The translations under genes and the position numbers were made by a program. From an uncultured virus (IMG/VR IMGVR_UViG_3300030390_001438) (taxonomy: Duplodnaviria; Heunggongvirae; Uroviricota; Caudoviricetes; Crassvirales): DNA of 64,000 nucleotides. The notes under the pieces are model-generated. The model did no database searches and was not told the origin of the DNA. It saw only the letters and a list, made by a program, of their open reading frames with translations. The number at the start of each line of letters is the position of its first letter. The first letter of the stretch is position 1. The stretch is from the IMG/VR virus record IMGVR_UViG_3300030390_001438; one strand, written 5' to 3'. This document shows positions 1 through 49,669 of this stretch, in pieces.

Positions 1-306
1 ACCAGAACGAGCAGATGTTAAAGCTGTTCCTCCTGCGATGTCTACAGTTTCACCGTCACTAATAGTTGCGCTACCTCCACTGTCTCCAGTTAAAAGCCAG
101 CTTGACATTGAACCTGAACTTGTTCCTACTGTTACCCAGCTACCTGAGCCAGTGTGATATTTAAGAACATTTGAATCGGTTCTGTATATTAATTGACCTT
201 CACCAGTTAGTGTAGCAGGATCAGCTGTTACATTATCAACTTTAAACTCTATAAGCTCTGAGTTTTGAAGGTTTATATTTGCAAAATACTTAATATCTGC
301 TGCCAT
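1..306 (-). CDS. Tail fibre-like protein, 5' part (runs off window start)
   Basis: Manually translated, not in ORF track: MAADIKYFANINLQNSELIEFK...GSMSSWLLTGDSGGSATISDGETVDIAGG; same repeat type as 62700-64000. Confidence 0.7.
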   Translation of the reverse strand, partial: MAADIKYFANINLQNSELIEFKVDNVTADPATLTGEGQLIYRTDSNVLKYHTGSGSWVTVGTSSGSMSSWLLTGDSGGSATISDGETVDIAGGTALTSARSG

Positions 307-324
307 AATTTTTTTTCTTTTTTA

Positions 325-1062
325 TTAATTAAAAATTGCTCTACCAGTAAACTGGTTATTAAATGTTAAAGTGCATTGATTTAAACTATCGTAATCCACT
401 TGACACTCTACTTCTTCGTCTGACGCATTTATTACTGAGACTGACGGTAATTTGTTTAAATTGTGATTTACTACAAAAACATCGTTTGAGGGAGCTAAAG
501 TCACAACAGCATTTTTATCTCCAGGAACGTTTGTTCCATAGTCCAACAAAGATATAAAATAATCTTCATTATGTTCGAAGCCCCCGTTACTTGCTGTGTG
601 GGTTAAGCTTATGTCGTAAAAATTTGGTTCACCTCCAACTTGAGCCGAAGCTACCCACGAAAAAATTCCCCATTGAGATATGTCAGAACATTTGGATATG
701 ATTACTGTTGAGCCAACTAAAGGTGCAGTATACCAAGATGATATATCTACATTAGGATGTCCTATTTGAGATTTACTAATTCTAAATCCTGTAACAGATG
801 AAAAAGCAAACACCGCTGCTTGTTGAGGGTTAAAAGTAATACTTCCTGAGTTTCTTACTGTTTGACCAGGAACATTAGGGTCTATAATTTGATAATAAAA
901 ACGAGGAACATCTAATTGCACTCTTGCATCAAGATTTAAAAAATCAGCAACTGATTGTGCTGTAAAGTTTTTAGTAGCATTTAAAAAACTGGCATCTGTG
1001 CCAATCCACTTATCATCCGCCTTTACAACATCTTGATTTACATATGTACTAATTCTTGCCAT
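325..1062 (-). CDS. Virion structural/fibre-associated protein
   Basis: N-terminal MARIS..D..I.TD...TK motif shared with 55972-56502; C-terminal VNHNLN domain resembles end of 62700-64000. Confidence 0.55.
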   Translation of the reverse strand: MARISTYVNQDVVKADDKWIGTDASFLNATKNFTAQSVADFLNLDARVQLDVPRFYYQIIDPNVPGQTVRNSGSITFNPQQAAVFAFSSVTGFRISKSQIGHPNVDISSWYTAPLVGSTVIISKCSDISQWGIFSWVASAQVGGEPNFYDISLTHTASNGGFEHNEDYFISLLDYGTNVPGDKNAVVTLAPSNDVFVVNHNLNKLPSVSVINASDEEVECQVDYDSLNQCTLTFNNQFTGRAIFN

Positions 1063-1064
1063 TC

Positions 1065-1466
1065 TTATTTTTTAATAGATTTGCCTTTTTCGTAAGATCT
1101 GCCTCCAAAATATGCTGCGGTTATTGTAATTAACAACATTTTTAAAAGTTCTTTCCACTCATCATCAACTGCAAAGTTAATAAATCCTGAGTCAATAAAG
1201 ATAAGCAACACTGTAGATACAAATAAAAAAATCAAAGTTAATGGACGTACTGATTTGCTTAGTTTATTATCACTGGACATATCATGCCTCCATCTTTCAG
1301 TAACATTTTTTTGTTGTTCTTTTTCTGCTTCAATAAAAATTTCTGTCATAGTTTTTTCAAACTCTGCCTTTTCATCTTTAGTTCTAATAAACTTGTCAGC
1401 AATATTTGACAGTTTATCAGCAACATTAGTTGCTCCGTTTCCAAATAATTTATTTAATATACTCAT
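1065..1466 (-). CDS. Putative holin (3TM/GTA-holin-like)
   Basis: Likely start MSILNKLFG; RW..DM.SD..LSK.VRPL motif, two clear TM segments, YFGGRS.EK end; near endolysin. Confidence 0.7.
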   Translation of the reverse strand: MSILNKLFGNGATNVADKLSNIADKFIRTKDEKAEFEKTMTEIFIEAEKEQQKNVTERWRHDMSSDNKLSKSVRPLTLIFLFVSTVLLIFIDSGFINFAVDDEWKELLKMLLITITAAYFGGRSYEKGKSIKK

Positions 1467-1470
1467 TGTA

Positions 1471-1752
1471 TTAGCATTTCCACCTTCTTCGGGCTTGTCG
1501 TATTCTCGAATTAGGATCATTTTGTGTAGATGCACTACTTCTTTTTAATTGGCCTAAACTTCTTGCGCAATAAGATTTTCTCCTTTTAGCAGGCTTACTA
1601 CCAGCTTTTACGTTGCCTGTAACAGCAGTTTTTAATTTACTGCCAGGGTTTGCCTTACGATAAGCGGCAACTCCTTTCTTTGTCATTCCCGCCCCCTTCT
1701 TAGTAGGTCTATAGTTAGCGCCTTTACCCTTGGTAGTTTTTCTTATAGCCAT
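1471..1752 (-). CDS. Small basic protein, SYCARS...RWKC family
   Basis: K/R-rich 93 aa; motif shared with 6282-6536. Confidence 0.75.
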   Translation of the reverse strand: MAIRKTTKGKGANYRPTKKGAGMTKKGVAAYRKANPGSKLKTAVTGNVKAGSKPAKRRKSYCARSLGQLKRSSASTQNDPNSRIRQARRRWKC

Positions 1753-1871
1753 TATTTTTTCTTATGCGTATAGCCTTTTTTCTTTAAAGCTAAATGCTGT
1801 TTCATGGTTGTAGCTTTTTTTGCTATTCCTGTTTTACTGTACATATTGTGTACTTTAAATTTTTTAGCCAT
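1752..1871 (-). CDS. Small basic protein A1 (39 aa)
   Basis: Manual: MAKKFKVHNMYSKTGIAKKATTMKQHLALKKKGYTHKKK; TAATG coupling; paralog at 6914-7051. Confidence 0.8.
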   Translation of the reverse strand: MAKKFKVHNMYSKTGIAKKATTMKQHLALKKKGYTHKKK

Positions 1872-1872
1872 A

Positions 1873-2034
1873 TTATTTCTTTTTTTTCATTTTAGCTCCT
1901 GCGATTCTGTCTGCTTGAGTAGGTCTTGGATTATTATCAATACCTGCTCTCACGCTTAACATTCCAAAACGATCTACGTCTTTGTTTTTAAAAGTTAATT
2001 TGTCGTAATCTTTTTTGTTCATTTTTTTTGCCAT
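1873..2034 (-). CDS. Small basic protein B1 (53 aa)
   Basis: Manual: MAKKMNKKDYDKLTFKNKDVDRFGMLSVRAGIDNNPRPTQADRIAGAKMKKKK; paralog at 7051-7212. Confidence 0.8.
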   Translation of the reverse strand: MAKKMNKKDYDKLTFKNKDVDRFGMLSVRAGIDNNPRPTQADRIAGAKMKKKK

Positions 2035-2186
2035 TATTTTTTATTTTTTGGTAATGATTTTATTTTTCCATTTTCAGTTCTTGCATATCTATGCGTAGAA
2101 GTTTCTTTACTTGCTATTAAAGTTCCGCAATATCTGCCATCGCCATATTGCCAACATACTTTTTTTCCTTTAGTTCTGCCTGCCAT
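2034..2186 (-). CDS. Small basic protein C1 (50 aa), possible SH3/Tudor-like fold
   Basis: Manual: MAGRTKGKKVCWQYGDGRYCGTLIASKETSTHRYARTENGKIKSLPKNKK; paralog at 7212-7364. Confidence 0.8.
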   Translation of the reverse strand: MAGRTKGKKVCWQYGDGRYCGTLIASKETSTHRYARTENGKIKSLPKNKK

Positions 2187-2188
2187 TT

Positions 2189-2647
2189 TTATATAATTTT
2201 ATATTTAGTCTTACCGTCTTTTTTATATGCCTTTAAACATCTTTTTCTATTTTCTTCTTTTGATACATAAGAAACATGAATCCAATTTGGGTTCATGTCT
2301 GTTCCAAATTCCCATATTAATTGATCAAAGTCTAAGTTTTCACGAATGTACGCAAACATTTCGGAATTGCTTTTATGCCCATATACATCATCAATATCAA
2401 TTGCCTGACCTTTACAATGCTGACTGGTACTCACGCCACCAATAGCCTCATTTAAAAATGTAGATCTGAAAAAAGAATTAACTTTTATAGCTCCATCTAC
2501 CCAAGACCTTAGTGGTTCAAAGACTTTTTCAGCAATTAACTTCATTGCTTCAACTTGTGTTGGATTTGGAGTGTTATCTATTCCTTTGCGTTTTGCAGTA
2601 TTAGAATGTATAGCCTCTGCATAAGTTATATGTTTGCTTATTATCAT
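2189..2647 (-). CDS. Endolysin, peptidase M15 family
   Basis: NSFFRS, SQH.KGQAIDID and WIHVSY Zn-peptidase motifs. Confidence 0.85.
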   Translation of the reverse strand: MIISKHITYAEAIHSNTAKRKGIDNTPNPTQVEAMKLIAEKVFEPLRSWVDGAIKVNSFFRSTFLNEAIGGVSTSQHCKGQAIDIDDVYGHKSNSEMFAYIRENLDFDQLIWEFGTDMNPNWIHVSYVSKEENRKRCLKAYKKDGKTKYKII

Positions 2648-3909
2648 AATTCAATGTTAAGTCCTATTGTAGATTTAAAAATTTCAGTATCCCAAAACTT
2701 AGTATATTCTCCTTCAACAAATAATCCTAAATTTGAGCTTATGTTCCATCCTAAAATTAATCCAAACTGATAGTCTTCCCATTGCTCTAACTCAGAATCT
2801 TCAATCAAACCGCCAAGCCCCCAGTTGTTTCTATTTAAATAACTAAAAGCCTCATCACCTTTAAAATATTTGTGATACGGTAAAATGTAATTTGCATATG
2901 CATGAATCCATGCCTTTTCATTATAACTGTAAAAATCCGCACCCACAATAGGGGCTACTTCTGCAAACGCATCTAATAAATCCCACTGTTCTCTGTTGTA
3001 TCTATTCATTAAGTCAGCAAAAACTGTTTCACGAAATTCTAAATCTGTATTAGCAACTACATTTCCATTTGGATCAACCCATAACCAATCTTGAGACTCA
3101 TTACCAGACTCATCTGTTAATGTATAAAATATATCATCATATCCATATTCAAACCCTAAACTGTACCAAGGATTAGCGGCATACTCATATGAGTTTCCTT
3201 CAGGATCAATATATTCAGTTGTTTCATTTAGCCATATCTCTACTGGATTGTATCCAAATGCTTGTTCATGAGTTCTGGCTATCACACCAGCACTAACACT
3301 AAACTTTTTACCAATAGGTAGTCTGCCTCTAATTTCAGCTGAGTTATATTCAAAACCCACATTGCCTTCAGCTCTTGATTCTACTTTAGCAATGTGATAC
3401 TTACCCGTATGCCTAAGAAAGTAACGGTGATTTATAAACTCCTCACCTCTCTCCCTTTCTTTTTCCCAATGAAATAAATATTCAAACCCATTAAATGCAG
3501 CGGTAGGAGAAGAAAGAGCTACGTTTTTTTCTGTGCCATCGTAATAATTTTTTTCTTTGTTTTCGTAATCAAACCTTGCTATTCTTCTAATTCCAAAACC
3601 ATATCTATAGTCGTAAGGAAAATATTCTGTTGCGTCCTCCACAACAGGTACGTCATACAAGCTTCCACTTGGATTTGTTCTTACAACATAATCTATACTT
3701 TGTTTTTGATAGGGATTGTTAACACTTCCAGCAATATAAACTGTACCGTATTTAAAAAAATCTTCGTATACCTTTTTAAAAAACATTTTTTTACCAAACC
3801 CTTTTTTTAATTTTTCAGTTTGATTTTCTGAAAGAGTATCCTGTGATGTTGCTTGAGCAGATGAATTTACAAATGTAAATACTAAAATAATGATAATGAA
3901 TTTTTTCAT
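2644..3909 (-). CDS. Secreted protein, probable outer-membrane beta-barrel
   Basis: Signal peptide MKKFIIIILVFTFVNSSA; aromatic-rich alternating strands; ends STIGLNIEL. Confidence 0.6.
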   Translation of the reverse strand: MKKFIIIILVFTFVNSSAQATSQDTLSENQTEKLKKGFGKKMFFKKVYEDFFKYGTVYIAGSVNNPYQKQSIDYVVRTNPSGSLYDVPVVEDATEYFPYDYRYGFGIRRIARFDYENKEKNYYDGTEKNVALSSPTAAFNGFEYLFHWEKERERGEEFINHRYFLRHTGKYHIAKVESRAEGNVGFEYNSAEIRGRLPIGKKFSVSAGVIARTHEQAFGYNPVEIWLNETTEYIDPEGNSYEYAANPWYSLGFEYGYDDIFYTLTDESGNESQDWLWVDPNGNVVANTDLEFRETVFADLMNRYNREQWDLLDAFAEVAPIVGADFYSYNEKAWIHAYANYILPYHKYFKGDEAFSYLNRNNWGLGGLIEDSELEQWEDYQFGLILGWNISSNLGLFVEGEYTKFWDTEIFKSTIGLNIEL

Positions 3910-3911
3910 GC

Positions 3912-4250
3912 TTAAAATTTACTTTTTACTATTTTGTTTATTTCTTTTTGTATTCTTTTTAAAGATCCTTCTGGAAGCTTTAAAGTAATATCACTCTCCA
4001 CCTTTACAATTAACTTCCTGTTGTGATACAAGCAGACTGTAGGTAGGTATTTTATTTCTTCTTTTTCAAAAATTTTAGGATGATCAGTCATAGCTAATCT
4101 CAATAAATCAGCACCTTCCAACTTGCTTATATCTATTTCGTTAGCCTTAACAAAATCGGCAGAATATTGTATTACTACAATTCCGTCTTTATAGGATTGG
4201 GCAAATGTAAGTGATGGTATTAAAAATAATATTACTATCCATGATCTCAT
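3912..4250 (-). CDS. Secreted thioredoxin-fold-like protein lacking CxxC
   Basis: Signal peptide; VVIQYSADF and IKYLPTVCLY resemble thioredoxin strand and cis-Pro motifs. Confidence 0.5.
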   Translation of the reverse strand: MRSWIVILFLIPSLTFAQSYKDGIVVIQYSADFVKANEIDISKLEGADLLRLAMTDHPKIFEKEEIKYLPTVCLYHNRKLIVKVESDITLKLPEGSLKRIQKEINKIVKSKF

Positions 4251-4531
4251 CTTTCTTTTGTCATTTCATAAAGACGCTCTTCCAACTTGCTTAAAGTTTC
4301 TTTCATCTCCTTTACATCGTCTTGGGTTGTCATTATTGCATCTCTAATTATTTGGTCTTTATATTGAAACTCTGTCGAGGTAACTTCAGGTTTTGGCAGC
4401 TCCATTGCTTTTGCAATATCTGCTTGTAGAATAAAGTACATAGAAGATAATGATACTGCAAATCCTACAATCATAGAAATTGTTTTTAAATCTAATGTGA
4501 CTTTTGTATCTTCTCCTATTTGTTGAGCCAT
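4247..4531 (-). CDS. Single-TM protein with C-terminal coiled coil
   Basis: TM ISMIVGFAVSLSSMYFIL; heptads in DVKEMKETLSKLEERLYEM. Confidence 0.65.
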   Translation of the reverse strand: MAQQIGEDTKVTLDLKTISMIVGFAVSLSSMYFILQADIAKAMELPKPEVTSTEFQYKDQIIRDAIMTTQDDVKEMKETLSKLEERLYEMTKER

Positions 4532-4532
4532 A

Positions 4533-5300
4533 TTACCAGATTGCTAAACAATTATTGTCTGCGGATGCATCTGTACCAGTATCGAATAATTGTACTACTT
4601 GAACAGGTAGATATTTACCTACAGGAAAATTACTAAACGTAACTATACTTCCAGCGGTCGTTTTTACTTTAACGTCAACAAAAGATTTTTCTACATCCAT
4701 AGAGGCATCACTACTTCCTACATATAATAAACATCCTTCAGAAGAATTTATTCTTGACGAACCGTTAGGGCCGCCTAAAAATATTTTATAGTTATCATCC
4801 CAAGTTTCACTTCCATCAAATAAAGTATCTGAAAGAGTTAAATCTACTTCACTGTTTATAGCAGTAACAGTTGCTGAAGTTCCAGCTGTAGTGTTATAAA
4901 CAATATCACCAACGCTTACGCCCTTAGTAATAAATGTTTCTCCACTAACAATTAGATGGTTTACTTTTACAATTGCATAAGTTTCAGTTCCATTAGGAAA
5001 TATATCTGCTCCTAATGGTATTACAGTTGCTCCAATAGGTGCTACCGCTGCAGTTGCTGCTCCAGACACTATAGAAATAACTCTATCTCCTACTACTACT
5101 GGTAAAGGAGGTGTTGCTGATAGGAAGTTTGCAGTTGTATCTACTAATTGATTAACAACATTATCGTTTGCTGTTCCGTTTGCAATTCCTGTAGAAGTTC
5201 CCGATATAACGGGTAAGCCAGGTGCTGGTATTGTAAGTGTGTCACTGGATATCACTTCTAATGATAATCCTGTGTTTACGGTAATTTTTGGGTATGCCAT
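4533..5300 (-). CDS. Virion structural protein with two copies of a beta-rich domain
   Basis: T/G/V-rich; GV.VGD.V type motif twice. Confidence 0.55.
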   Translation of the reverse strand: MAYPKITVNTGLSLEVISSDTLTIPAPGLPVISGTSTGIANGTANDNVVNQLVDTTANFLSATPPLPVVVGDRVISIVSGAATAAVAPIGATVIPLGADIFPNGTETYAIVKVNHLIVSGETFITKGVSVGDIVYNTTAGTSATVTAINSEVDLTLSDTLFDGSETWDDNYKIFLGGPNGSSRINSSEGCLLYVGSSDASMDVEKSFVDVKVKTTAGSIVTFSNFPVGKYLPVQVVQLFDTGTDASADNNCLAIW

Positions 5301-5337
5301 TTTTTTAATTTTGAGGGTTAAAAATCTCTTTTACTAA

Positions 5338-5493
5338 TTATCTTTTATAAGGAAACTTTCGATTTAAACTATCTCGTCTTTCAGAACAACCACAGTCTTT
5401 TCCTATTATCTTTCCTACTCTTTGAACAGCAGAATGTATTCCTGTTGCTTTTGTTACTTTTTGAATTGAATCACCTAAACCTCTTGATTTCAT
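5338..5493 (-). CDS. Small basic protein (51 aa) with CGC motif
   Basis: Manual: MKSRGLGDSIQKVTKATGIHSAVQRVGKIIGKDCGCSERRDSLNRKFPYKR; ATGA overlap with upstream gene. Confidence 0.75.
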   Translation of the reverse strand: MKSRGLGDSIQKVTKATGIHSAVQRVGKIIGKDCGCSERRDSLNRKFPYKR

Positions 5494-5684
5494 TTCTTTC
5501 CCATGTTTACTGGTTCTGGCATGTTTACTTCAGGAATATTTGATTCAGGTTTACAAAGGCATTGTGATACTGGACATTCATCTACATTAAATATTAATTT
5601 AGATATTAGCCAATTCCATTTACATTGAAATTTGCACCATACGTTCTGCATCCAGATACCTAATTTTACAAATAATTTTCCCAT
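5490..5684 (-). CDS. Small Cys/Trp-rich amphipathic protein
   Basis: 64 aa in tightly packed operon; five Cys. Confidence 0.65.
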   Translation of the reverse strand: MGKLFVKLGIWMQNVWCKFQCKWNWLISKLIFNVDECPVSQCLCKPESNIPEVNMPEPVNMGKK

Positions 5685-5690
5685 AGTTTT

Positions 5691-5855
5691 TTAGGTGTTG
5701 TATATTGTTTTTCTTTTTACATGAGGAACAAATTGAACTGTTGAATTAGTTGCAACTATTGCCTCTGGTTTTTTTTCTCCTTCTTTTTTTACTGTTTTAC
5801 TTTTAGTAACAGTTTTTTTTGGAGAAGCATCTTTCTTTGAAATTTTTTTCGCCAT
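5691..5855 (-). CDS. Small basic protein (54 aa) with SPKK
   Basis: Manual: MAKKISKKDASPKKTVTKSKTVKKEGEKKPEAIVATNSTVQFVPHVKRKTIYNT. Confidence 0.7.
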   Translation of the reverse strand: MAKKISKKDASPKKTVTKSKTVKKEGEKKPEAIVATNSTVQFVPHVKRKTIYNT

Positions 5856-5871
5856 TATATTAAATTTGAAT

Positions 5872-6036
5872 TTATTTTTTCTTTCTCATGTTTTTAAGAT
5901 TCATAGCAAAGTTATATGCTTTAGAACCTTTGGGGCATGTTTTACTTCCAAGTTTTTTACCAGTACATTTTCCTAATGTACCTTTTTTTTTGGCTTTAGC
6001 AAAAACATCTTGTATGAAACCCTTTTTTTTACTCAT
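5872..6036 (-). CDS. Small basic protein (54 aa)
   Basis: Manual: MSKKKGFIQDVFAKAKKKGTLGKCTGKKLGSKTCPKGSKAYNFAMNLKNMRKKK; TAATG coupling. Confidence 0.75.
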   Translation of the reverse strand: MSKKKGFIQDVFAKAKKKGTLGKCTGKKLGSKTCPKGSKAYNFAMNLKNMRKKK

Positions 6037-6251
6037 TACTTTTGAATAAGCTTTCCTAAATGCGCATGTACTTTTCCGTCTTTAATGCATTTATGTTCGT
6101 AGCTCATAGAATGATCTCCTCCGTAAGAATGTCCATATTCTTTTTTAGACATACCTTTACTTTCATCTCTTCTTGATTTATAAGATTGAGACTTCTTTCC
6201 GTTTTTTGATCCTAAAGACTCATCGAGTCTTGCATTGTATCCTTGTTTCAT
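6036..6251 (-). CDS. Small basic protein
   Basis: 71 aa ORF just downstream of a TAnnTTTG promoter. Confidence 0.7.
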   Translation of the reverse strand: MKQGYNARLDESLGSKNGKKSQSYKSRRDESKGMSKKEYGHSYGGDHSMSYEHKCIKDGKVHAHLGKLIQK

Positions 6252-6267
6252 AACTTTTAATTTTATA

Positions 6268-6275
6268 CAAATATA
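6268..6275 (-). promoter_or_regulatory. Bacteroidota-type -7 promoter element
   Basis: TATATTTG on - strand 16 nt upstream of ATG at 6251. Confidence 0.6.
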
Positions 6276-6281
6276 ACAATA

Positions 6282-6536
6282 TTATTTTTTAGATTTTTTA
6301 CCAACACACTTCCATCTTTTACGAGATAAATTGTTTGGTGTATTAGGGTCATTTCTTTTACCAATAGGTAATCCCATTTTTATTCCATAGCTTCTGGCAC
6401 AATATGAATCTCCTTTGGAAGTCCCTGGCTTTACTCTTGGGCCACCGCCTTTAGCTTTACCTGCTTGTCCATAACTTACCTTTTTTCCAGAAGCAGTAAT
6501 TTTAACTTTTGCTTTTCCTTGTCTCGGTTTTGCCAT
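6282..6536 (-). CDS. Small basic protein, SYCARS...RWKC family
   Basis: Shares SYCARS.G...NDPN....R.RWKC with 1471-1752. Confidence 0.75.
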   Translation of the reverse strand: MAKPRQGKAKVKITASGKKVSYGQAGKAKGGGPRVKPGTSKGDSYCARSYGIKMGLPIGKRNDPNTPNNLSRKRWKCVGKKSKK

Positions 6537-6542
6537 TAACCT

Positions 6543-6917
6543 TTATTTTTTATACCTTCTTACCATTCTTCCCTTAATATATTTTGCTCTCATTCTTCCT
6601 ATAACATTATTTCTTAATTTGCGAGTTTTAATTTTACCTTTTTCCCCTTTTTGTCTAATGTTAGTTACTGTATGAGATCCATCTTTATTTTTTTTAATAA
6701 ATTTTGTTTTTGACTTATAAGTCCCTTTTTCACCTTTTTCTTTTATAACTTCTCGTGTCGAAGACATTTCATTCTCTCCTGTCTTTAAAGATTTCTCAAC
6801 TATTTTAGATTTATATTTGCCTTTCTCTCCTTTTTCTTTAATAGACTCTTTCATTGTGCTTTTAACAGAAATATTAGGTCTTTTTTTTGCAGGCTTTTTT
6901 TTCTTTTTGATAGTCAT
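6543..6917 (-). CDS. Lys-rich protein with internal KGEKG repeats
   Basis: KEKGEKG.YKSK twice plus QKGEKGK. Confidence 0.7.
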   Translation of the reverse strand: MTIKKKKKPAKKRPNISVKSTMKESIKEKGEKGKYKSKIVEKSLKTGENEMSSTREVIKEKGEKGTYKSKTKFIKKNKDGSHTVTNIRQKGEKGKIKTRKLRNNVIGRMRAKYIKGRMVRRYKK

Positions 6918-7051
6918 GATTTTTTCTTTGCTCTTCTTTTGTCGTGATTATAACCTCTTTTTTTTAATGATAAGTGATCAGACATAGTCTTAGCAACTTT
7001 TTTAATGCCTGTTTTACTATACATATTATGTACTTTAAATTTCTTAGCCAT
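6914..7051 (-). CDS. Small basic protein A2 (45 aa)
   Basis: Manual: MAKKFKVHNMYSKTGIKKVAKTMSDHLSLKKRGYNHDKRRAKKKS. Confidence 0.8.
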   Translation of the reverse strand: MAKKFKVHNMYSKTGIKKVAKTMSDHLSLKKRGYNHDKRRAKKKS

Positions 7052-7212
7052 TATTTTTTCTTTTTCATAGTTGCTCCAGCTATTCTATCTGCTTTAGTAA
7101 TCCCTGGATTATTATCAATACCAGCTTTTACACTAAGCATACCAAACTTATCGACATCTTTATTTCTAAATCCTATTTTGTTGTAAGCTTTTTTGTTCAT
7201 TTTTTTTGCCAT
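7051..7212 (-). CDS. Small basic protein B2 (53 aa)
   Basis: Manual: MAKKMNKKAYNKIGFRNKDVDKFGMLSVKAGIDNNPGITKADRIAGATMKKKK. Confidence 0.8.
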   Translation of the reverse strand: MAKKMNKKAYNKIGFRNKDVDKFGMLSVKAGIDNNPGITKADRIAGATMKKKK

Positions 7213-7364
7213 TATTTTTTCTTTTTTGGTAATGATTTTATTTTTCCATTTTCAGTTCTCGCATATCTATGAGTAGAAGTTTCTTTACTTGGTATTAAAG
7301 TTCCACAATATTTGCCACTGCCATATTGCCAACATACTTTTTTTCCTTTAGTTCTACCTTTCAT
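7212..7364 (-). CDS. Small basic protein C2 (50 aa)
   Basis: Manual: MKGRTKGKKVCWQYGSGKYCGTLIPSKETSTHRYARTENGKIKSLPKKKK. Confidence 0.8.
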   Translation of the reverse strand: MKGRTKGKKVCWQYGSGKYCGTLIPSKETSTHRYARTENGKIKSLPKKKK

Positions 7365-7669
7365 TAATCGTAAGGGTTATAAGTTCTTTTACTTTCCTTT
7401 CTTTTTTTCCTTCTCTCAATTTTCTGTTTTACTTTCTGTTTTACAACTTTTTTTATCTTAGAAATTATTTTAGAGCTTTTTTTCTTTTTTTTCTTTTCTT
7501 GGAAATCATCTCCCCTTATAAGAGTTCTGTTTCTTTTCAAGCGTGATTCATCGTTATCCATATCATTATCTTTTAAAAATTTCTGATATCCCACTTTTAG
7601 TTTTGCACACGCCTCTTTGGTTTTAGCTGTGCGTATCATTCCTCCATATCTGTATTCACAATTTGCCAT
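7364..7669 (-). CDS. Lys-rich protein
   Basis: 101 aa; poly-K tract; coupled ORF. Confidence 0.7.
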   Translation of the reverse strand: MANCEYRYGGMIRTAKTKEACAKLKVGYQKFLKDNDMDNDESRLKRNRTLIRGDDFQEKKKKKKSSKIISKIKKVVKQKVKQKIERRKKRKESKRTYNPYD

Positions 7670-7674
7670 TCTTC

Positions 7675-7812
7675 TTATCTTTTTTTGCTTTTAGGAAAAC
7701 CTTTTTTCATATTACTATAAGCTTTTTTTGTAATAGTAGATTTAGATTTAGATCTTGATGTCCCTGCTTTTTTACGTTTATTGATGTTTGCGTACAATCC
7801 GTTTTTAGCCAT
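7675..7812 (-). CDS. Small basic protein (45 aa)
   Basis: Manual: MAKNGLYANINKRKKAGTSRSKSKSTITKKAYSNMKKGFPKSKKR. Confidence 0.75.
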   Translation of the reverse strand: MAKNGLYANINKRKKAGTSRSKSKSTITKKAYSNMKKGFPKSKKR

Positions 7813-7818
7813 TTTATT

Positions 7819-8190
7819 TTATTTTTTCTTTTTTAATATTTTTCTGTAGTTAATAATGGATTTGGCTTTCTTAACGTCTTTAGCTGTATTGGAAATTGTT
7901 TTAATAGCTCCTTTAGCATCAAGGTTTTTTATATTTTTAGCAAGCTTAACAGCTCCTTGTACCACTTTACCAGTTTTAGAATTAGCTACTTTTGTACCTA
8001 CCTTTATTGCTTTATCAGCTCCTCTTCTTACTTTTGTTTTTCCTGTAGAGTTTAACCCTGCTATATTTTTTTTAAGTCTTGCCGTTTTTTTAAGACTACA
8101 CTTTTTAGTTTTAGCACAATTAGCTAATTGTCTTTTTTGCTTCTTTAACGACATCCTTGCTAAAGCAGTCAACTTTGGTTTATCTGCCAT
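7819..8190 (-). CDS. Lys-rich protein
   Basis: 123 aa, K/A-rich. Confidence 0.7.
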   Translation of the reverse strand: MADKPKLTALARMSLKKQKRQLANCAKTKKCSLKKTARLKKNIAGLNSTGKTKVRRGADKAIKVGTKVANSKTGKVVQGAVKLAKNIKNLDAKGAIKTISNTAKDVKKAKSIINYRKILKKKK

Positions 8191-8196
8191 AATTAT

Positions 8197-8469
8197 TTAT
8201 CTTTTTCTTGGATTATCGTTAATTTTTCTTCGATTCTTTTGTTCTTTTTTAGCTAAACGATTTATCTGACTAATAAAAGACTTTTGTTTTTTAGTTAGCT
8301 TAACATTCTTAACTTCTTTAGTTCTGATCTTATTGTAATTTTCTTTGCCTAATTCTTTTTTCAAAATATTAACCATATCCATTCTACTTGTAGAATCTTT
8401 TACAATTTTTTTTCTAACTTTTACCCTTTTTAAAGAGTCCCTAACTTTTTTAGTAATCGGATCTGGCAT
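8197..8469 (-). CDS. Lys/Arg-rich protein
   Basis: 90 aa in packed operon. Confidence 0.7.
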   Translation of the reverse strand: MPDPITKKVRDSLKRVKVRKKIVKDSTSRMDMVNILKKELGKENYNKIRTKEVKNVKLTKKQKSFISQINRLAKKEQKNRRKINDNPRKR

Positions 8470-8472
8470 CGC

Positions 8473-8724
8473 TTAATACATTTTTCTTTTTGGTTTAACT
8501 TTAGACAAGCCAATTTTACGTGCCGTTTTTTTAACAACCCCAGGCTTCATAGCTGGTTTTTTAGGTGTTTTAGGCATTTTCATTTTTCTAAGTTGAGCTG
8601 CAGATTTTTTAGATCCTGCAATTAATTTTAATGCAGTTGCTTTTTTCTTTTTCCCAGCTGCTCTTTTCTTTTTCCCTGGTGGTCTTCCTTTTTTTGAACC
8701 GTACGTTCCCATTCCTTGTGGCAT
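8473..8724 (-). CDS. Basic protein with histone-H1-tail-like composition
   Basis: 25 K + 5 R in 83 aa, no D/E, contains TPKK. Confidence 0.7.
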   Translation of the reverse strand: MPQGMGTYGSKKGRPPGKKKRAAGKKKKATALKLIAGSKKSAAQLRKMKMPKTPKKPAMKPGVVKKTARKIGLSKVKPKRKMY

Positions 8725-8748
8725 AATTTTATTTTTTAGTTATTATTA

Positions 8749-8964
8749 TTAATTTTTCTTAAAAGCTTTAATTTTATTTTTTAGTGATTCTCTTTTTTTC
8801 ATGATTTTTTCAAATCGAAAACCCTTAAGTGAATCTAATTTCCTTAGCTTAACAGAATCTTTTTTCCGTTTCATTTTGTAAGCAGGTGTATTTCTTTTAG
8901 CAGCTATCTTAGCTCTACACTTTTTTAATTTTTCTCCTGTTAATCCTTTACAATAAAGTGCCAT
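8749..8964 (-). CDS. Lys-rich protein
   Basis: 71 aa. Confidence 0.7.
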   Translation of the reverse strand: MALYCKGLTGEKLKKCRAKIAAKRNTPAYKMKRKKDSVKLRKLDSLKGFRFEKIMKKRESLKNKIKAFKKN

Positions 8965-8974
8965 TTATTTAGTT

Positions 8975-9409
8975 TTATATATTACAATACTCTATTGTGG
9001 CATCGAAACTTGGACATGCTTTTGCAGCAAAGTCTCGATGACCATGAATTTTTGCTTCTGGATACATCTTACGCAATACAAGCAATAATTCTAACATAGT
9101 TTCTTTTTGTTCTGGTGTTCTTGTATCTTTTGCAGGATACTTTCCTTTTGAATCTCTTTCAGATTCCACTCCACCCACATAACAAATTGAGATAGAACTA
9201 CAATTCAAACCCTTCGTATGCGCTCCACACTTATCTATCATGCGTCCAGTTTCAATAGATCCGTCTATTAGAACTAAAAAATGATAACCAATTCCTTTCC
9301 ATCCTCTTTTTTTATGCCACCGATCTATAACCTCAGCATTGATGGAGTCATCTCCTTCTCGTGTTGCAGAACAATGAATTATGAATTTATTTACGTTCTC
9401 TTTCTTCAT
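8975..9409 (-). CDS. N-acetylmuramoyl-L-alanine amidase (T7 lysozyme/Amidase_2 type)
   Basis: IIHCSAT, IGYHF, GAH, GHRDF..KACPSF motifs. Confidence 0.9.
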   Translation of the reverse strand: MKKENVNKFIIHCSATREGDDSINAEVIDRWHKKRGWKGIGYHFLVLIDGSIETGRMIDKCGAHTKGLNCSSISICYVGGVESERDSKGKYPAKDTRTPEQKETMLELLLVLRKMYPEAKIHGHRDFAAKACPSFDATIEYCNI

Positions 9410-9414
9410 TGTTT

Positions 9415-9438
9415 TACTTTTGTATCTTTACAAAAATA
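9415..9438. promoter_or_regulatory. Overlapping opposed TAnnTTTG promoters
   Basis: TACTTTTG (+, 9415-9422) toward 9460; TATTTTTG (-, 9431-9438) toward the amidase. Confidence 0.55.
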
Positions 9439-9459
9439 ACAAATTAAATCTACTTTTTT

Positions 9460-9912
9460 ATGAGCGTTTCAGTTCGCAGTACTTCACGTAAACAACCTAC
9501 GCATGATTATCTTAAATACTGGCGAGTAATTAAATACTGGGCAAAGAGAAAATATAATATTAGTACAGAAGATTTAGAAATGATGTTGTTTCTATACAGT
9601 GAACATCTGTTTAATAAAACAAAGTTTGAAGAATACCAAAAACTAATGAGTTGGAATAAGAATAAATTTTACACTTTAATAAAACAAGGTTACATACACC
9701 AATGGCGTAAGAAAAATGGGAAAGAAGCTGCTATGTATGAATTAACTTACAAAGCAAAACGTTTAGTAAATAACGTATATGGGAAGTTAAATGGTGAAGA
9801 GTTTCCTGAAAACTATGTAAACAATCCTGTATTCAAACATGATGTTAAGTTTAGAGATAAAGTCTTTAGACAATATATGCTTAAAATAAATAAAGAAATA
9901 AGAGAAAATTAA
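9460..9912 (+). CDS. Putative winged-helix DNA-binding protein
   Basis: Helical N-half then LIKQGYI...MYELTYKAK wing pattern (MarR-like). Confidence 0.55.
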   Translation: MSVSVRSTSRKQPTHDYLKYWRVIKYWAKRKYNISTEDLEMMLFLYSEHLFNKTKFEEYQKLMSWNKNKFYTLIKQGYIHQWRKKNGKEAAMYELTYKAKRLVNNVYGKLNGEEFPENYVNNPVFKHDVKFRDKVFRQYMLKINKEIREN

Positions 9913-10166
9913 ATAACTACTACTACGTCTTTTTCACTAATAACAGTATACACCTGATCATTAATTAACATTGAGTGTCCTGCAGCTTTATCATAGTATA
10001 TATTATCATTTTCTTTAATAGTATCTACTAAAGTTCCTGGTTTAACTACGTTAGCTTTTTGATATCTCATAGAAGATACATCTTCTGCAGATAATAATAT
10101 ACCTGATTCTGTTTTAACTTCTTCTTCTGTTTTTGTAATTACAATAAATTTACCTATTGGCTGCAT
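9909..10166 (-). CDS. groES: Co-chaperonin GroES
   Basis: MQPIGKFIVI, KTESGILL mobile loop, ISEKDVVVV; adjacent to groEL. Confidence 0.9.
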   Translation of the reverse strand: MQPIGKFIVITKTEEEVKTESGILLSAEDVSSMRYQKANVVKPGTLVDTIKENDNIYYDKAAGHSMLINDQVYTVISEKDVVVVI

Positions 10167-10167
10167 A

Positions 10168-11781
10168 TTATATTTGATTTATTCTTTTGTGAGTTACAAT
10201 TGCATTAGTTGATAGAATTGTAGTAGCAACACTACTTGCATTTAATAATGCATTCTTTGTAACTTTAAGTGGATCAATAATACCCATAGTTAACATGTTA
10301 CCAAACTTCTCATTCTTAGCATCAAAACCATAGTTCTTAGTATTCTTGTTGTTTATCTTCTCTATGATGTCGTTCGGGTTTATTCCTGCGTTGTTTAGGA
10401 TTTGAATCAAAGGTTGACAAAGGGCATCTTTAACCATTTTCAATGCTACTTCATAGTCTGCATCTCCTTGCCACGTTTTACTACCTGTAATACTTTTGCT
10501 GGCATTGTATAAAGCTATACCTCCACCAGCTACAATTCCTTCTTCTAAAGCAGAACGTACAGCACATACCGAGTCATCAACTCGGTCAAATTTTTCTTTC
10601 TGTTCTACATCTGAGTTACCGCCAACGTAAATACAGCCTATAGCTCCAGCTAAACTTGCTATACGCTCGTCAATAAATTTACGAGACACTGGGTCTGTAG
10701 TATTATCTTGCTGAACTCTAAGCTCTTTTACGCGCTTTCTTAGTTCCTCAGTAGGTTCTGAATTTTTTATTAATACGGAAGTTGTCTTGCCAATAATAAT
10801 TTTATTAGCAAAACCTAAATCCTCAGCTCTTAATAGACTAAGGTCATCTCCCGTTTGCTCTGAAAAGTATTTAGCTCCAACAGTTGCTGCTATATCTTGC
10901 ATCAGTTCGTTCTTCTTATAACCGAACGAAGGCGGTGCAATATTACATAGCTTCAAATTGTTTCTAACTACGTTGGCTGCAAAAGTGTTTATCACGTTTT
11001 GACCGCAGTCTGCTATTATTAATAACTTGTCATTATTTTGTATGATCTTTTTTAATACCGATTCGATTTGTAAAATATTACTTATCTCTTGATCACATAC
11101 TAAAACCTTTACATCTTCTAATATGCACTCATCTTTCTTTTGATTATTTATAAATAGATTAGAAGTATAACCTCTATCTACTTTTATACCGTTAGTAACC
11201 TCTGCGTAGGTCTTATGGTTTTGTGATTTCTCTACAGTCACTATTCCATCACGACCAACTTTGTTGTAGGCTTCCGCAATTAATTCCCCAATTATCGAAT
11301 CATTGTTAGCAGATATCTTAGCTACGTCTAATAAACTATTGTCTGTAATTTTTTTAGAATTTTTTTCTAACTTATCTACAACTTGTTCTATTAAAGCATT
11401 AGTGTGTCTAACAACCATTGATGTGTTATGACTATCATCAATGTACTCATTCCCTGCTTTTACAAAAGCTTCTGCCAAAACAATAGCTGTAGTCGTTCCA
11501 TCACCAGCTGAATTAGCTGTACGCTCGGCTGCATCTTTCATTATCTGAATCGCAAGATTCTCTACTGGATCATCTAAAAAGATAGATGCTGCAACTGTAA
11601 CGCCATCCTTAGTCACCGTCATCCCTCGCATATGTTCGGGAGACTCTACTACAACTGTCTTACCTCGTGGGCCTAATGTACTCTTAACTGCTTTTGAAAT
11701 TTGAGAGATTCCGCTTATTAATTTATCTCTACCAGATTTATCGAAATGTAAATCTTTTGGAATGTAGCCCTGTTGTGACAT
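10168..11781 (-). CDS. groEL: Chaperonin GroEL
   Basis: TLGPRG, VTKDGVTVA, GDGTTTA, GIVAGGG, IIDPLKV; start moved to MSQQ because a promoter lies inside the longer ORF. Confidence 0.95.
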   Translation of the reverse strand: MSQQGYIPKDLHFDKSGRDKLISGISQISKAVKSTLGPRGKTVVVESPEHMRGMTVTKDGVTVAASIFLDDPVENLAIQIMKDAAERTANSAGDGTTTAIVLAEAFVKAGNEYIDDSHNTSMVVRHTNALIEQVVDKLEKNSKKITDNSLLDVAKISANNDSIIGELIAEAYNKVGRDGIVTVEKSQNHKTYAEVTNGIKVDRGYTSNLFINNQKKDECILEDVKVLVCDQEISNILQIESVLKKIIQNNDKLLIIADCGQNVINTFAANVVRNNLKLCNIAPPSFGYKKNELMQDIAATVGAKYFSEQTGDDLSLLRAEDLGFANKIIIGKTTSVLIKNSEPTEELRKRVKELRVQQDNTTDPVSRKFIDERIASLAGAIGCIYVGGNSDVEQKEKFDRVDDSVCAVRSALEEGIVAGGGIALYNASKSITGSKTWQGDADYEVALKMVKDALCQPLIQILNNAGINPNDIIEKINNKNTKNYGFDAKNEKFGNMLTMGIIDPLKVTKNALLNASSVATTILSTNAIVTHKRINQI

Positions 11782-11809
11782 GTGATTTAAAATTAAATTA
11801 GATTCCTTA

Positions 11810-11817
11810 CAAATATA
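11810..11817 (-). promoter_or_regulatory. -7 promoter element for groEL-groES
   Basis: TATATTTG on - strand. Confidence 0.6.
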
Positions 11818-11861
11818 CAAAATTTATTTGATGCAACCGCACATGCTGTTGCTAAACAACA

Positions 11862-12051
11862 ATGACGCAATGACAGAATGAAATGCTTTATTTATACTAT
11901 AGAAGTATTTACTTTATATATATTTTTTATATACTAAAAAATTGATTTAAAACTGTCATTTCAGTCATTTTTAATATAACTTACTTATTATTAGTTACTT
12001 ATACTTTTAATAACTGTCATTAAACTGTCATTAAAATGACTATAATAGTCA
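11862..12051. repeat. ATGAC/GTCAT iteron-like element flanking an AT-rich core (copy 1)
   Basis: ATGAC x2, AT-rich spacer, CTGTCATTTCAGTCATTT, AACTGTCATTA x2, TGACTA-taa-TAGTCA. Confidence 0.7.
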
Positions 12052-46683: not shown

Positions 46684-48150
46684 TTATGCATCTTGAAATA
46701 AGAAGAAGTTGTTTGCTCCTAAGACACAAACAGCTCTTTCAGTCAAGAAGTTTACTTCCATAGCATCTAAAGAAGATGTTTTTGCTCCACCAGCAGAACC
46801 AGTGATCCAAGTTTTATATCTTCTATCTTCAGTTTCAGAAGCTCTGTAACGAACATGTAAGAAAGGACGCTTAGCATTCTTTCCTAAGATTTGATCGTAA
46901 ACTGTAGTTGAACCAGCAGGAACTAATAGTCCGTTGATTGCTCCACCTACAAGACCGCCTCTCATTGTTGGGTCGTTAAGATATTTCCAGTCAGACTTGT
47001 AAAAGTCATAACCTCTTCTAAATCCTGAGAATCCAAGATTTAAAGCCATCTCTTCATCATTATCAAATAAACCATATGAAGTACCACCAGCTCCGTAAGA
47101 GTTTTGTGCTGCTAACATATCGTCAATGTCAAATGAAAAGTCTCTATTTACAAAAAGAACATTTTCTTCAATAGCTCCTTGCTTGTCTAATCTTTGAATA
47201 ATAGAATCAAATTCAGAAAGTACTGTTGGATTACCTCCACCAAATACATTTCCTCTTTGTCCTACTACAAAGAATACACCTTCAGAACCATTTAAGTTTG
47301 CTGCTGAGTTACCAGCTGCAACTCCTTGGAAAAAGTCTCCTGCTCCAGAAGTAGCTTCTGCAGGTACAGCTTCAATCATAGCTGTCTCCATGTAGTCTTC
47401 AAAACGTAATCTTGTGTCATGCTCAGATTTTAAATACCATAGGTATCCGCTTACGCCATCTTCACCTGATACTTCGATCCATCCAATTTGAGCCATATCA
47501 GAACCAGAAACAGAATATTTGTCTTTGATAATGATTGGTTTGTTATCGAAAATAAAGTCATCAGCTTCATTAGATCCTACCATACCATCAGTTCCTTTGT
47601 TAAATTCAGAACCATAGATAAAGATATCACACGATACTCCAGCTGCCATAGTTTGTCCAGTTGCTTCATAGTAAGCAATTGTTACAACGTTTGGCGCACC
47701 AGCTGTAGGTGCTACTGTAATTACACCTTTGTTAGTTAAATTTGATCCAGGTGTTTTGTCAGAGACCATTACTGTTTGTCCAACTCTTAAAGACGCTGTA
47801 TTAGGCGTTCCACCTAATGCAGGGTTAAAGTTAGTAACGTTGTTAGGAATAGTCCATACAGCGGCTCTTGTTGCTGCTCCAGCTGCCGAAGCAGATGTGC
47901 AATTTTGATATTTTACATGCAATCTTCCTTGCTCAGCCCATTTAATAAGGTCAGAGTTAGAAGGCATTTCAGCTCCTACCAATCTAAGGAAGGAGGATAC
48001 GCTTCGATTACCATATCTTTCAAACTCTTTTTCATAAGTGTCAGGTAAATACTGATTTAAGAAATTGAAGTCTGTAATATAGTTGCTTTCCAACGGCACT
48101 TGTTGTGCTGAAGGTTGTAAGTCGAAACCAGGGGTTACATTTACTGCCAT
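46684..48150 (-). CDS. Major capsid protein
   Basis: 488 aa after portal and scaffold, followed by terminator; resembles capsids of Bacteroidota podoviruses (by eye). Confidence 0.8.
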   Translation of the reverse strand: MAVNVTPGFDLQPSAQQVPLESNYITDFNFLNQYLPDTYEKEFERYGNRSVSSFLRLVGAEMPSNSDLIKWAEQGRLHVKYQNCTSASAAGAATRAAVWTIPNNVTNFNPALGGTPNTASLRVGQTVMVSDKTPGSNLTNKGVITVAPTAGAPNVVTIAYYEATGQTMAAGVSCDIFIYGSEFNKGTDGMVGSNEADDFIFDNKPIIIKDKYSVSGSDMAQIGWIEVSGEDGVSGYLWYLKSEHDTRLRFEDYMETAMIEAVPAEATSGAGDFFQGVAAGNSAANLNGSEGVFFVVGQRGNVFGGGNPTVLSEFDSIIQRLDKQGAIEENVLFVNRDFSFDIDDMLAAQNSYGAGGTSYGLFDNDEEMALNLGFSGFRRGYDFYKSDWKYLNDPTMRGGLVGGAINGLLVPAGSTTVYDQILGKNAKRPFLHVRYRASETEDRRYKTWITGSAGGAKTSSLDAMEVNFLTERAVCVLGANNFFLFQDA

Positions 48151-49354: not shown

Positions 49355-49669
49355 TTAGCTTCTTTTTTTACTAATTTTTTTATCTATTTTTTCTACGGCT
49401 TTACCAACTGCATATTCTTTAAGCATCCATTTACCTGCTTTGTATAAACCCTTTACACCAGATCCTATGTTTGCTAAATTTCCAGCAGAACCTAATCTTT
49501 TTGCTTTTAAACCTTTAGGTATATTTTTTATCAGACCTTTTTTTTTCGCAGCTATTTGCTTAGGTGTTAATTTCTTTTTTAGTTTTTTTCTTTGTACTAC
49601 TTTTTTTCGTGTAGGTTGACTATCAACAACAGTTTTTTTTCTACGTTCTGATTTTTTTAATTTACTCAT
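49355..49669 (-). CDS. Lys-rich protein in head module
   Basis: 104 aa; coupled to portal stop codon. Confidence 0.65.
   Translation of the reverse strand: MSKLKKSERRKKTVVDSQPTRKKVVQRKKLKKKLTPKQIAAKKKGLIKNIPKGLKAKRLGSAGNLANIGSGVKGLYKAGKWMLKEYAVGKAVEKIDKKISKKRS

Follow-up and report, generated by a model that had tools for sequence, protein, structure and literature searches.

The stretch analysed here is a window of 64,000 nucleotides (nt) from an uncultured virus (IMG/VR record IMGVR_UViG_3300030390_001438), and the term window refers to the whole of it. It carries an array of 20 co-oriented open reading frames (ORFs) on the minus strand, each of 39-124 amino acids (aa) and 19 of them strongly basic, in two blocks: four ORFs, b01-b04, at 1471-2186 and 16 ORFs, b05-b20, at 5338-8964 (the main block). 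From the upstream end of the array, the members are as follows.

b20, 8749..8964, minus strand: 71 aa, net charge +22
b19, 8473..8724, minus strand: 83 aa, net charge +30, with a TPKK motif
b18, 8197..8469, minus strand: 90 aa, net charge +23
b17, 7819..8190, minus strand: 123 aa, net charge +35
b16, 7675..7812, minus strand: 45 aa, net charge +16, phrog_25774
b15, 7364..7669, minus strand: 101 aa, net charge +22, with a lysine run
b14, 7212..7364, minus strand: 50 aa, net charge +13, with a lysine tail; paralogue of b04
b13, 7051..7212, minus strand: 53 aa, net charge +11; paralogue of b03
b12, 6914..7051, minus strand: 45 aa, net charge +14; paralogue of b02
b11, 6543..6917, minus strand: 124 aa with 35 Lys, net charge +34; low-complexity and repeat-like
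b10, 6282..6536, minus strand: 84 aa, net charge +22; divergent DUF6321-like protein
b09, 6036..6251, minus strand: 71 aa, net charge +8; conserved core member
b08, 5872..6036, minus strand: 54 aa, net charge +17
b07, 5691..5855, minus strand: 54 aa, net charge +11, with an SPKK motif
b06, 5490..5684, minus strand: 64 aa with five Cys, Trp-rich; conserved core member, ATGA-coupled to b05
b05, 5338..5493, minus strand: 51 aa, net charge +9; conserved core member, directly upstream of the gene for a 255-aa protein
b04, 2034..2186, minus strand: 50 aa, net charge +10; paralogue of b14 (90% aa identity)
b03, 1873..2034, minus strand: 53 aa, net charge +10; paralogue of b13
b02, 1752..1871, minus strand: 39 aa with 13 Lys, net charge +13; paralogue of b12
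b01, 1471..1752, minus strand: 93 aa, net charge +27; stand-alone DUF6321 domain

The 19 strongly basic products have isoelectric points (pI) of 9.7-11.9 and net charges of +8 to +35, the exception being b06, with a net charge of only +3 and a pI of 8.7. Combined, the 20 ORFs amount to 1398 aa, of which 24.2% are Lys, 6.8% Arg and 6.0% Asp or Glu, and their net charges total +350. All members other than b06 are very hydrophilic (grand average of hydropathy, GRAVY, -0.7 to -1.5), amphipathic stretches (hydrophobic moment 0.55-0.69) are confined to b17, b18, b15 and b05, with the highest value in b17, and 12 of the 20 proteins begin with Met-Ala. A first reading of this DNA from its letters only (the sequence-only reading) had described two blocks of basic co-oriented ORFs that were tightly packed and often coupled by TAATG or ATGA, ten ORFs of less than 60 aa, one ORF with 25 Lys and 5 Arg in 83 aa and no acidic residue, and a position among lysis genes, and on each of these points it is borne out. 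Within the main block 15 of the 16 ORFs are strongly basic; the 18 junctions within the two blocks comprise six TAATG overlaps, two ATGA overlaps and ten gaps of 1-30 nt; the ten short ORFs measure 39-54 aa, which is below common gene-calling cut-offs; the 83-aa ORF (b19) has the stated composition, with 20% Pro + Gly; and an amidase gene lies directly upstream of the main block, while the second block is set between an M15 endolysin gene and a holin gene. On the coding strand, 97% of the main block is covered by ORFs of at least 39 aa, whereas 1000 shuffles of the block gave on average 1.5 ORFs and 6% coverage, with maxima of six ORFs and 25%. Given this difference in coverage, the homologues found in relatives and the low ratios of nonsynonymous to synonymous substitution (dN/dS) described below, the array ORFs are real genes under selection. 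Antisense to b17, a 137-aa Phe/Leu-rich ORF on the plus strand (7856-8269) was rejected as a shadow frame, as L003, a related contig introduced below, conserves only the frame of b17.

Many array products end in runs of lysine codons right before the next start codon (e.g. ...AAAAAGAAAAAATAATG), and in hosts without Shine-Dalgarno sites these terminal runs may double as A-rich translation leaders.

When positions 1-12000 of the window were compared with cultured phages by megablast, no DNA-level match was found. At the protein level, the coat protein (46684-48150) and portal (49669-52104) are 64-67% identical to those of the uncultured podophage MW202828.1, 48-51% to those of Maribacter phage Panino, 44-46% to those of the Flavobacterium 'elemo' phages (68 records) and 33% to those of Cellulophaga phages including phi38:1 and phi40:1. 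Judged by these proteins, the window is a GroEL-encoding podophage, kin of Flavobacterium, Maribacter and Cellulophaga phages, and given this kinship the host is probably a marine member of the Flavobacteriia. A nearly identical stretch recurs in sequencing runs of marine samples from 12 studies.

Conservation was followed over 80 viral contig stretches around relatives of the window's GroEL, with homologues counted by phmmer over 84 loci; L003 denotes the contig with a 95% identical GroEL. A comparison of conservation and synteny had been put forward as a check on the sequence-only reading, and it came out in favour of the genes: up to 57 of the 84 loci have array homologues on the strand of GroEL, gene order is shared, and 11 genes (b01, b02, b04, b06, b08, b09, b10, b12, b14, b16 and b18) have dN/dS of 0.02-0.2. 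The common order is GroEL, GroES, a regulator, a series of small basic ORFs that varies between loci, b09, one or two small ORFs, b06, b05 and the 255-aa protein, followed by an optional membrane trio, a single endolysin of the M15 or amidase type, in some loci a DUF6321 cassette, the holin and a fibre-like protein.

The array encodes two kinds of product. The first comprises conserved, portable mini-domains with lysine tails: two DUF6321 domains, two predicted SH3-like barrels (b04/b14, as modelled below), b02/b12, b03/b13, b05, b06, b08, b09 and b16. Both b09 (dN/dS 0.11) and b05 occur in 57 loci; b09 had no tblastn match among 50,697 cultured-phage records, and the cultured-phage matches of b05 are limited to MW202828.1 and Microcystis phage Mel-JY01. 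Next in breadth are b06 (38 loci, dN/dS 0.07-0.15, 48% hydrophobic residues), b01 (21 loci, 0.05-0.11), b02/b12 (12 loci; 0.09-0.11 for b02 and 0.05 for b12 against L003), b03/b13 (11 loci), b08 (11 loci, 0.06), b10 (93-94% identical copies in nine loci, 0.02-0.05) and b04/b14 (six loci; 0.03-0.06 for b04 and 0.05-0.08 for b14). The match of b16 to phrog_25774 has an E-value (E) of 1.8e-19; the protein is 68% identical to gp22 of Pelagibacter phage HTVC100P, has homologues in two loci (dN/dS 0.15-0.19) and adjoins DUF6321 genes in contigs L014 and L030. The second kind comprises fast-evolving, low-complexity, lysine-rich proteins (b07, b11, b15 and b17-b20), whose relatives are basic too while the sequence drifts. 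For the low-complexity b11, b15, b17, b19 and b20, dN/dS is 0.23-0.68. Four members have homologues in L003 only, namely b11 (34% identity, dN/dS 0.45), b17 (E 3e-48, 76%, 0.29), b18 (89%, 0.13) and b20 (E 5e-30, 80%, 0.68); b15 is found in four loci (0.23-0.57), and homologues of b19 (three loci; E 3e-6, 50% identity, dN/dS 0.28) and b07 (four loci) are weak.

Part of the window's excess of such genes is a duplicated cassette. The segment 1752-2186 has its paralogue at 6914-7364 (74-90% aa identity), and 1471-1752 is more distantly paralogous to 6282-6536 (34% identity), such that the order b04-b03-b02-b01 is mirrored by b14-b13-b12-(b11)-b10. Synonymous sites are saturated in two of the paralogue pairs, and the copies are therefore old or were separately acquired.

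Across the 80 contigs, small ORFs reach a net charge of at least +8 in 47% of cases downstream of GroEL on its strand (877 ORFs) and in 10% of cases upstream (976 ORFs), and the small ORFs of the site fall into 211 families, 120 of them singletons, within which net charge is kept in narrow ranges. An automatic count, which misses b06 and b17 and adds two non-array ORFs, gives 20 small basic ORFs for the window, four each for MW202828.1 and Panino and three for phi38:1; relatives have 0-11 per flank of at most 10 kb, and the window lies at the upper end. The region is a hot spot of tiny polycation genes in the lysis/structure-strand operon. It is possible to see in this an assortment of unrelated mobile accessory genes at a recombination hot spot, each with a role of its own and with a charge that is partly a by-product of small size, of A-rich coding DNA and, where hosts have no Shine-Dalgarno sites, of a demand for A-rich leaders. 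The many singletons, a content that varies between close relatives, the presence of cassettes at two different sites, a main-block coding strand of 48% A and the lysine runs directly before so many start codons are all consistent with such a collection. Nevertheless, this is rather unlikely for three reasons: first, families keep their basic charge, also in members from phages that infect other hosts. Second, basic charge is not a trait of the small ORFs in other parts of these contigs (the 10% against 47% above). Third, linkage recurs, both as b04-b03-b02-DUF6321-b16 orders and as fused forms.

Of the array proteins, b01 is the sole one with a Pfam family match (DUF6321, PF19846; 45.6 bits against a cut-off of 28.5, E 1.1e-11). 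None of the 20 proteins scored above an NCBIfam cut-off, and a match to Csf2 in that collection was dismissed as chance-level (20.7 bits against a cut-off of 130). The product of b10 has no Pfam match at E <=0.05, reaches phrog_10346 at E 0.005 and DUF6321 proteins by phmmer at E ~1e-8, and on these similarities is a divergent DUF6321 relative only. DUF6321 matches 6078 longer proteins at E <=0.001, the 120 matches listed having 74-90% identity to b01; clustering at 50% identity gives 2422 representatives, and the domain is present in 350 cultured-phage records, nearly all of cyanophages and pelagiphages. A full-text literature search for 'DUF6321' returned no paper naming it. Between b01 and gp24 of Pelagibacter phage HTVC100P, identity is 89% at the protein level and 72% at the nucleotide level; with protein identity so far above DNA identity, the likeness has been kept by selection and is not the product of recent transfer, which suggests constraint by a universal partner. 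In HTVC100P the DUF6321 gene likewise lies downstream of an M15 peptidase gene, amid the small basic gp28 (+15), gp26 (+9) and gp22 (+19). The AlphaFold2 model of b01, built from 51 sequences, is compact and helical with a predicted local distance difference test score (pLDDT) of 83.4, and a fold search with it gave nothing usable (best Foldseek E 4, best VIA Z 4.9, helical hairpins only).

In other ocean phages, DUF6321 and the b09 module occur either alone or joined to further modules in long basic proteins. The proteins with DUF6321 measure 84-850 aa, and the domain nearly always forms their C-terminus. In 24 long DUF6321 proteins, the rest of the chain held no Pfam domain in 23 cases and DUF192 in one; in the eight that were inspected, the N-terminal parts carry a net charge of +20 to +68 and, by eye, recurring short conserved blocks. 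One metagenomic protein (P0069) joins DUF6321 to DUF5872 and another (P0010), by eye, joins it to a b16-like block, while the b09 module lies within 187 longer metagenomic proteins, mostly of about 200 aa. The joints between modules often hold a Gly-Gly pair: it lies within 12 residues upstream of the position equivalent to the b01 start in 84 of 196 fused forms (112 are without it), with the first residues of b01 aligning directly after the Gly-Gly in those 84, and for the b09 module, 55 of 122 cases have it no more than eight residues upstream. Counts of a joint-like motif came to 255, compared with 42 in shuffles, the proteins being related to each other. Within the window's own array, the Met/Tyr-Lys-x-Gly-Gly joint is found only at residues 6-10 of b15.

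Two further metagenomic DUF6321 proteins, P0026 and P0039, have an insertion of about 195 residues that splits a conserved N-terminal block, starts with Cys and ends with Asn-Ser, and thus looks intein-like by eye; Pfam gave no support for an intein at E <=0.01.

One family of such chains has been met in virions. DUF6321 is the C-terminal domain of the cyanomyovirus cluster T4-GC119, whose genes neighbour those of the terminase. The entry for this cluster in the supplements of Sullivan et al. 2010 (PMC3037559) reads 'Existence of Proteomic Data: YES'; in Table S8 it is classed as 'Structural protein' with 13 peptide counts in S-SM1 virions, a link made at cluster level, and S-PM2 is marked as lacking it.

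The second module for which a fold was predicted is the b04/b14 family, which has 89 metagenomic relatives and whose two cysteines are unconserved. The AlphaFold2 model of b14 is a small four-stranded barrel (pLDDT 82.4) with a best Foldseek E-value of 0.13 and weak VIA matches (Z 5.1-4.0) to SH3-like, integrase C-terminal, Tudor, KOW and Hfq domains, the best being a designed SH3 protein (Z 5.1, 1.6 A over 40 residues), with retroviral integrase C-terminal domains at Z 4.4-4.9. The modelled SH3-like barrel of b04/b14 agrees with nucleic-acid binding. The sequence-only reading had likened the products to histone tails and protamines, but they are not uniformly of the histone-tail type. The motifs on which it drew are present, SPKK once in b07 (5691-5855) and TPKK once in b19 (8473-8724), but the argument from histone H1 falls away: by within-protein shuffles 0.49 S/TPKK motifs would be expected, and the two that are present are no enrichment (P = 0.09), and no array protein has a Pfam match to linker-histone or Hc1 at E <=0.05. 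Several members are moreover predicted to be folded, the DUF6321 domain as helices (pLDDT 83) and b14 as a barrel (pLDDT 82), which is at odds with tail-like peptides.

These observations raise the possibility that the proteins bind nucleic acid within the infected cell and are not packaged, acting in nucleoid compaction, in the protection of replicating DNA or on RNA and ribosomes. Their composition and the predicted SH3-like fold, with its Hfq, KOW and integrase C-terminal matches, fit general RNA or DNA binding, and a partner common to all cells would be in keeping with sequences so extremely conserved among phages whose hosts are unrelated. A T7-like cyanophage with a genome of 38 kb has its DUF6321 match at about 11 kb, which in the T7-like gene order is presumably not among the structural genes. 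The stretch was also found in contigs of metatranscriptome runs (shares 0.91 and 0.87), which carry-over of DNA may explain. Such a role is nevertheless unlikely, given that the array genes lie in the lysis/structural strand block, not among the replication genes, and that T4-GC119 was found in S-SM1 virions.

The genes that surround the array are transcribed in the order GroEL (10168-11820), GroES, a regulator-like gene on the opposite strand, the amidase, b20 to b05 and the 255-aa protein, and onward through three membrane or secreted proteins, the M15 endolysin, b04 to b01, the holin and a tail-fibre-like protein. Those with assigned features are listed below.

9460..9912, plus strand: regulator-like gene, 150 aa; phrog_17028 E 2.7e-12, phrog_12817 'transcriptional regulator' E 8.8e-5
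8975..9409, minus strand: N-acetylmuramoyl-L-alanine amidase (endolysin); Pfam Amidase_2 E 3.9e-12, phrog_822 E 8e-51
4533..5300, minus strand: 255-aa protein, always next after b05 in relatives
2189..2647, minus strand: Peptidase M15 endolysin; Pfam Peptidase_M15_3 E 7e-16, phrog_894 E 7e-26
1065..1535, minus strand: holin; phrog_3427 E 1.2e-21 over residues 31-155, Pfam GTA_holin_3TM E 1.7e-4

Since the GroES and regulator genes converge, the array operon most likely starts at the amidase. A scan for sigma-70 promoters found 38 sites against 54.6 expected, with Bacteroidota promoters outside the coverage of the scan. Nearly all related loci (L003-L082) have an ORF on the opposite strand after GroES. 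In the window the regulator and amidase genes diverge from a shared intergenic region of 50 nt, and given this arrangement the regulator may control the array and lysis operon. The 255-aa protein has a weak match to NCBIfam spike_base (E 1.2e-5, below cut-off), which makes a tail or spike part possible. The listed GTG start of the holin overlaps b01, and the true start probably lies downstream of it, just past the b01 stop. Between the 255-aa protein and the M15 endolysin, a gene trio on the minus strand (2644-4531) is conserved in many relatives and encodes a protein of 94 aa with one membrane span and a coiled C-terminal part, and two proteins of 112 aa and 421 aa with signal peptides; these are candidates for the missing outer-membrane lysis step. 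The window has two endolysins (M15 at 2189-2647 and amidase at 8975-9409), where most relatives have one or the other beside the holin. A 14-residue motif is shared by b03 (1873-2034), b13 (7051-7212) and the N-terminal helix region of the M15 endolysin, with nine of 14 positions identical (pairwise E 1e-5). Away from the array, a minus-strand gene at 49355-49669, between the portal gene and a 379-aa gene preceding the coat protein, encodes a 104-aa protein of net charge +31; it has no counterpart in the closest relative, MW202828.1, and its relatives are found in only two viral contigs (100% and 70% identity).

Given this setting, one or a few of the array products could act on membranes as lysis helpers in the manner of the phiKT gp28 'disruptin', a cationic peptide that disrupts the outer membrane following the action of the endolysin. 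The block b01-b04 lies exactly between endolysin and holin, as does phiKT gp28 (56 aa, +7; 10.1101/515445), the main block follows the amidase, no spanin was recognized in Pfam, NCBIfam and PHROGs scans, and the amphipathic stretches of b17, b18, b15 and b05 would suit such a role. However, it is very unlikely to account for the array for several reasons: b01-b04 themselves are hydrophilic (GRAVY -1.1 to -1.2) with maximum hydrophobic moments of 0.19-0.45; in most relatives the endolysin abuts the holin, and the DUF6321 cassette is then in the main array or absent; the same domain ends a cyanophage virion protein; and twenty genes far exceed the need.

It is tentatively suggested, as a reading that is quite possible and by analogy with systems compared below, that the array products are nucleic-acid-binding polycations loaded into the phage head. 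Most of them would bind nucleic acid through their positive charge; they would be made late and enter the head with or before the DNA; and once there they would screen the charge of the DNA, some perhaps leaving with it on infection in the style of the T4 internal proteins. On this proposal, the stand-alone genes of the window would be the counterparts of modules which in other phages belong to a single encoded chain, one perhaps cut at the Gly-Gly joints. In addition to the detection of T4-GC119 in S-SM1, two small basic proteins of Cellulophaga phage phi40:1, gp069 and gp080, each of net charge +24, are marked in GenBank with 'experimental MS/MS proteomics analysis', which refers to tandem mass spectrometry (MS/MS).

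A number of observations weigh against loading into the head. The virion detections come from other phages (S-SM1 and phi40:1), with none for the window's own members; the Syn9 member of T4-GC119, as given in the supplements of PMC3037559, is annotated and was undetected in virions; and the MS-detected gp069 and gp080 are without a homologue in the window or in related loci. No N-terminal targeting peptide is shared among the 20 proteins or with the coat protein, nor was a coat-protein-like N-terminal tag seen in the window. Among 30 neighbouring or structural proteins, several of them without any match, PHROGs identified no prohead protease. Even contigs whose GroEL proteins are 95% identical differ in the array genes that they carry, as is typical of dispensable accessory genes, and this also counts against the earlier proposal of one multi-component system. 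One copy of each protein would neutralize about 350 charges against at least 128,000 phosphates in a genome of at least 64 kb, and hundreds of copies would therefore be needed. The fold matches are weak (Z <=5.1) and fold alone does not show function, and some of the lysine codons at the C-termini may be there for the A-rich leader of the gene that follows.

Should the array proteins be packaged with the DNA, they would represent a widespread and abundant component of marine virions that has been overlooked, and one that bears on genome condensation and ejection where polyamines and magnesium may be limiting. In its broadest form, this proposal would make the basic mini-domains shared by cyanomyoviruses, pelagiphages, flavobacterial podophages and crAss-like phages a protein coat of the genome, a phage 'chromatin' delivered as Gly-Gly-cut chains or as arrays of tiny genes and missed by trypsin-based virion proteomics; in that breadth it is distinctly unlikely. 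Should they act in the cell or on membranes instead, they would constitute a large and so far unexploited collection of very small domains that bind nucleic acid or act on membranes.

Among known systems, the proposed likeness is to the T4 internal proteins IPI, IPII, IPIII and Alt, which are small and variable, are carried in the head with the DNA and are ejected with it, and which according to PMC7697877 amount to about 1370 internal subunits totalling 18 MDa. They differ in having a capsid-targeting peptide of about 10 residues that is removed by a prohead protease, neither peptide nor protease having been found here, and they have no sequence similarity to the array, whose genes are many more and smaller. 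T4-GC119 shares the DUF6321 domain of b01 and is likewise basic and modular, yet it is one long chain of 90-990 aa encoded beside the terminase genes, whereas b01 is a lone domain between endolysin and holin. The gp28 disruptin of phiKT resembles b01-b04 in being small, cationic and encoded between endolysin and holin; gp28 is a single amphipathic helical peptide, whereas b01-b04 are hydrophilic mini-domains predicted to be folded (b01 helical, the b14 paralogue of b04 a beta-barrel), and relatives lyse without b01-b04 at the endolysin-holin site. The gp069 and gp080 proteins of phi40:1 and phi38:1, phages whose portal is 33% identical to that of the window, are small polycations as well and are annotated as structural from MS/MS, although they are single genes, not an array, and have no detectable homology to the window's ORFs. 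The core proteins VII and mu of adenovirus are polycations that condense packaged DNA, and their precursors are cut at Gly-Gly-containing sites. These sites resemble the Gly-Gly joints of the fused array relatives, although the adenovirus proteins are arginine-rich, belong to a eukaryotic virus and are unrelated in sequence, and the phage joints are putative cleavage sites. In summary, the closest analogues, the T4 internal proteins and the adenovirus core proteins, would be similar to the array in their manner of working and not its relatives.

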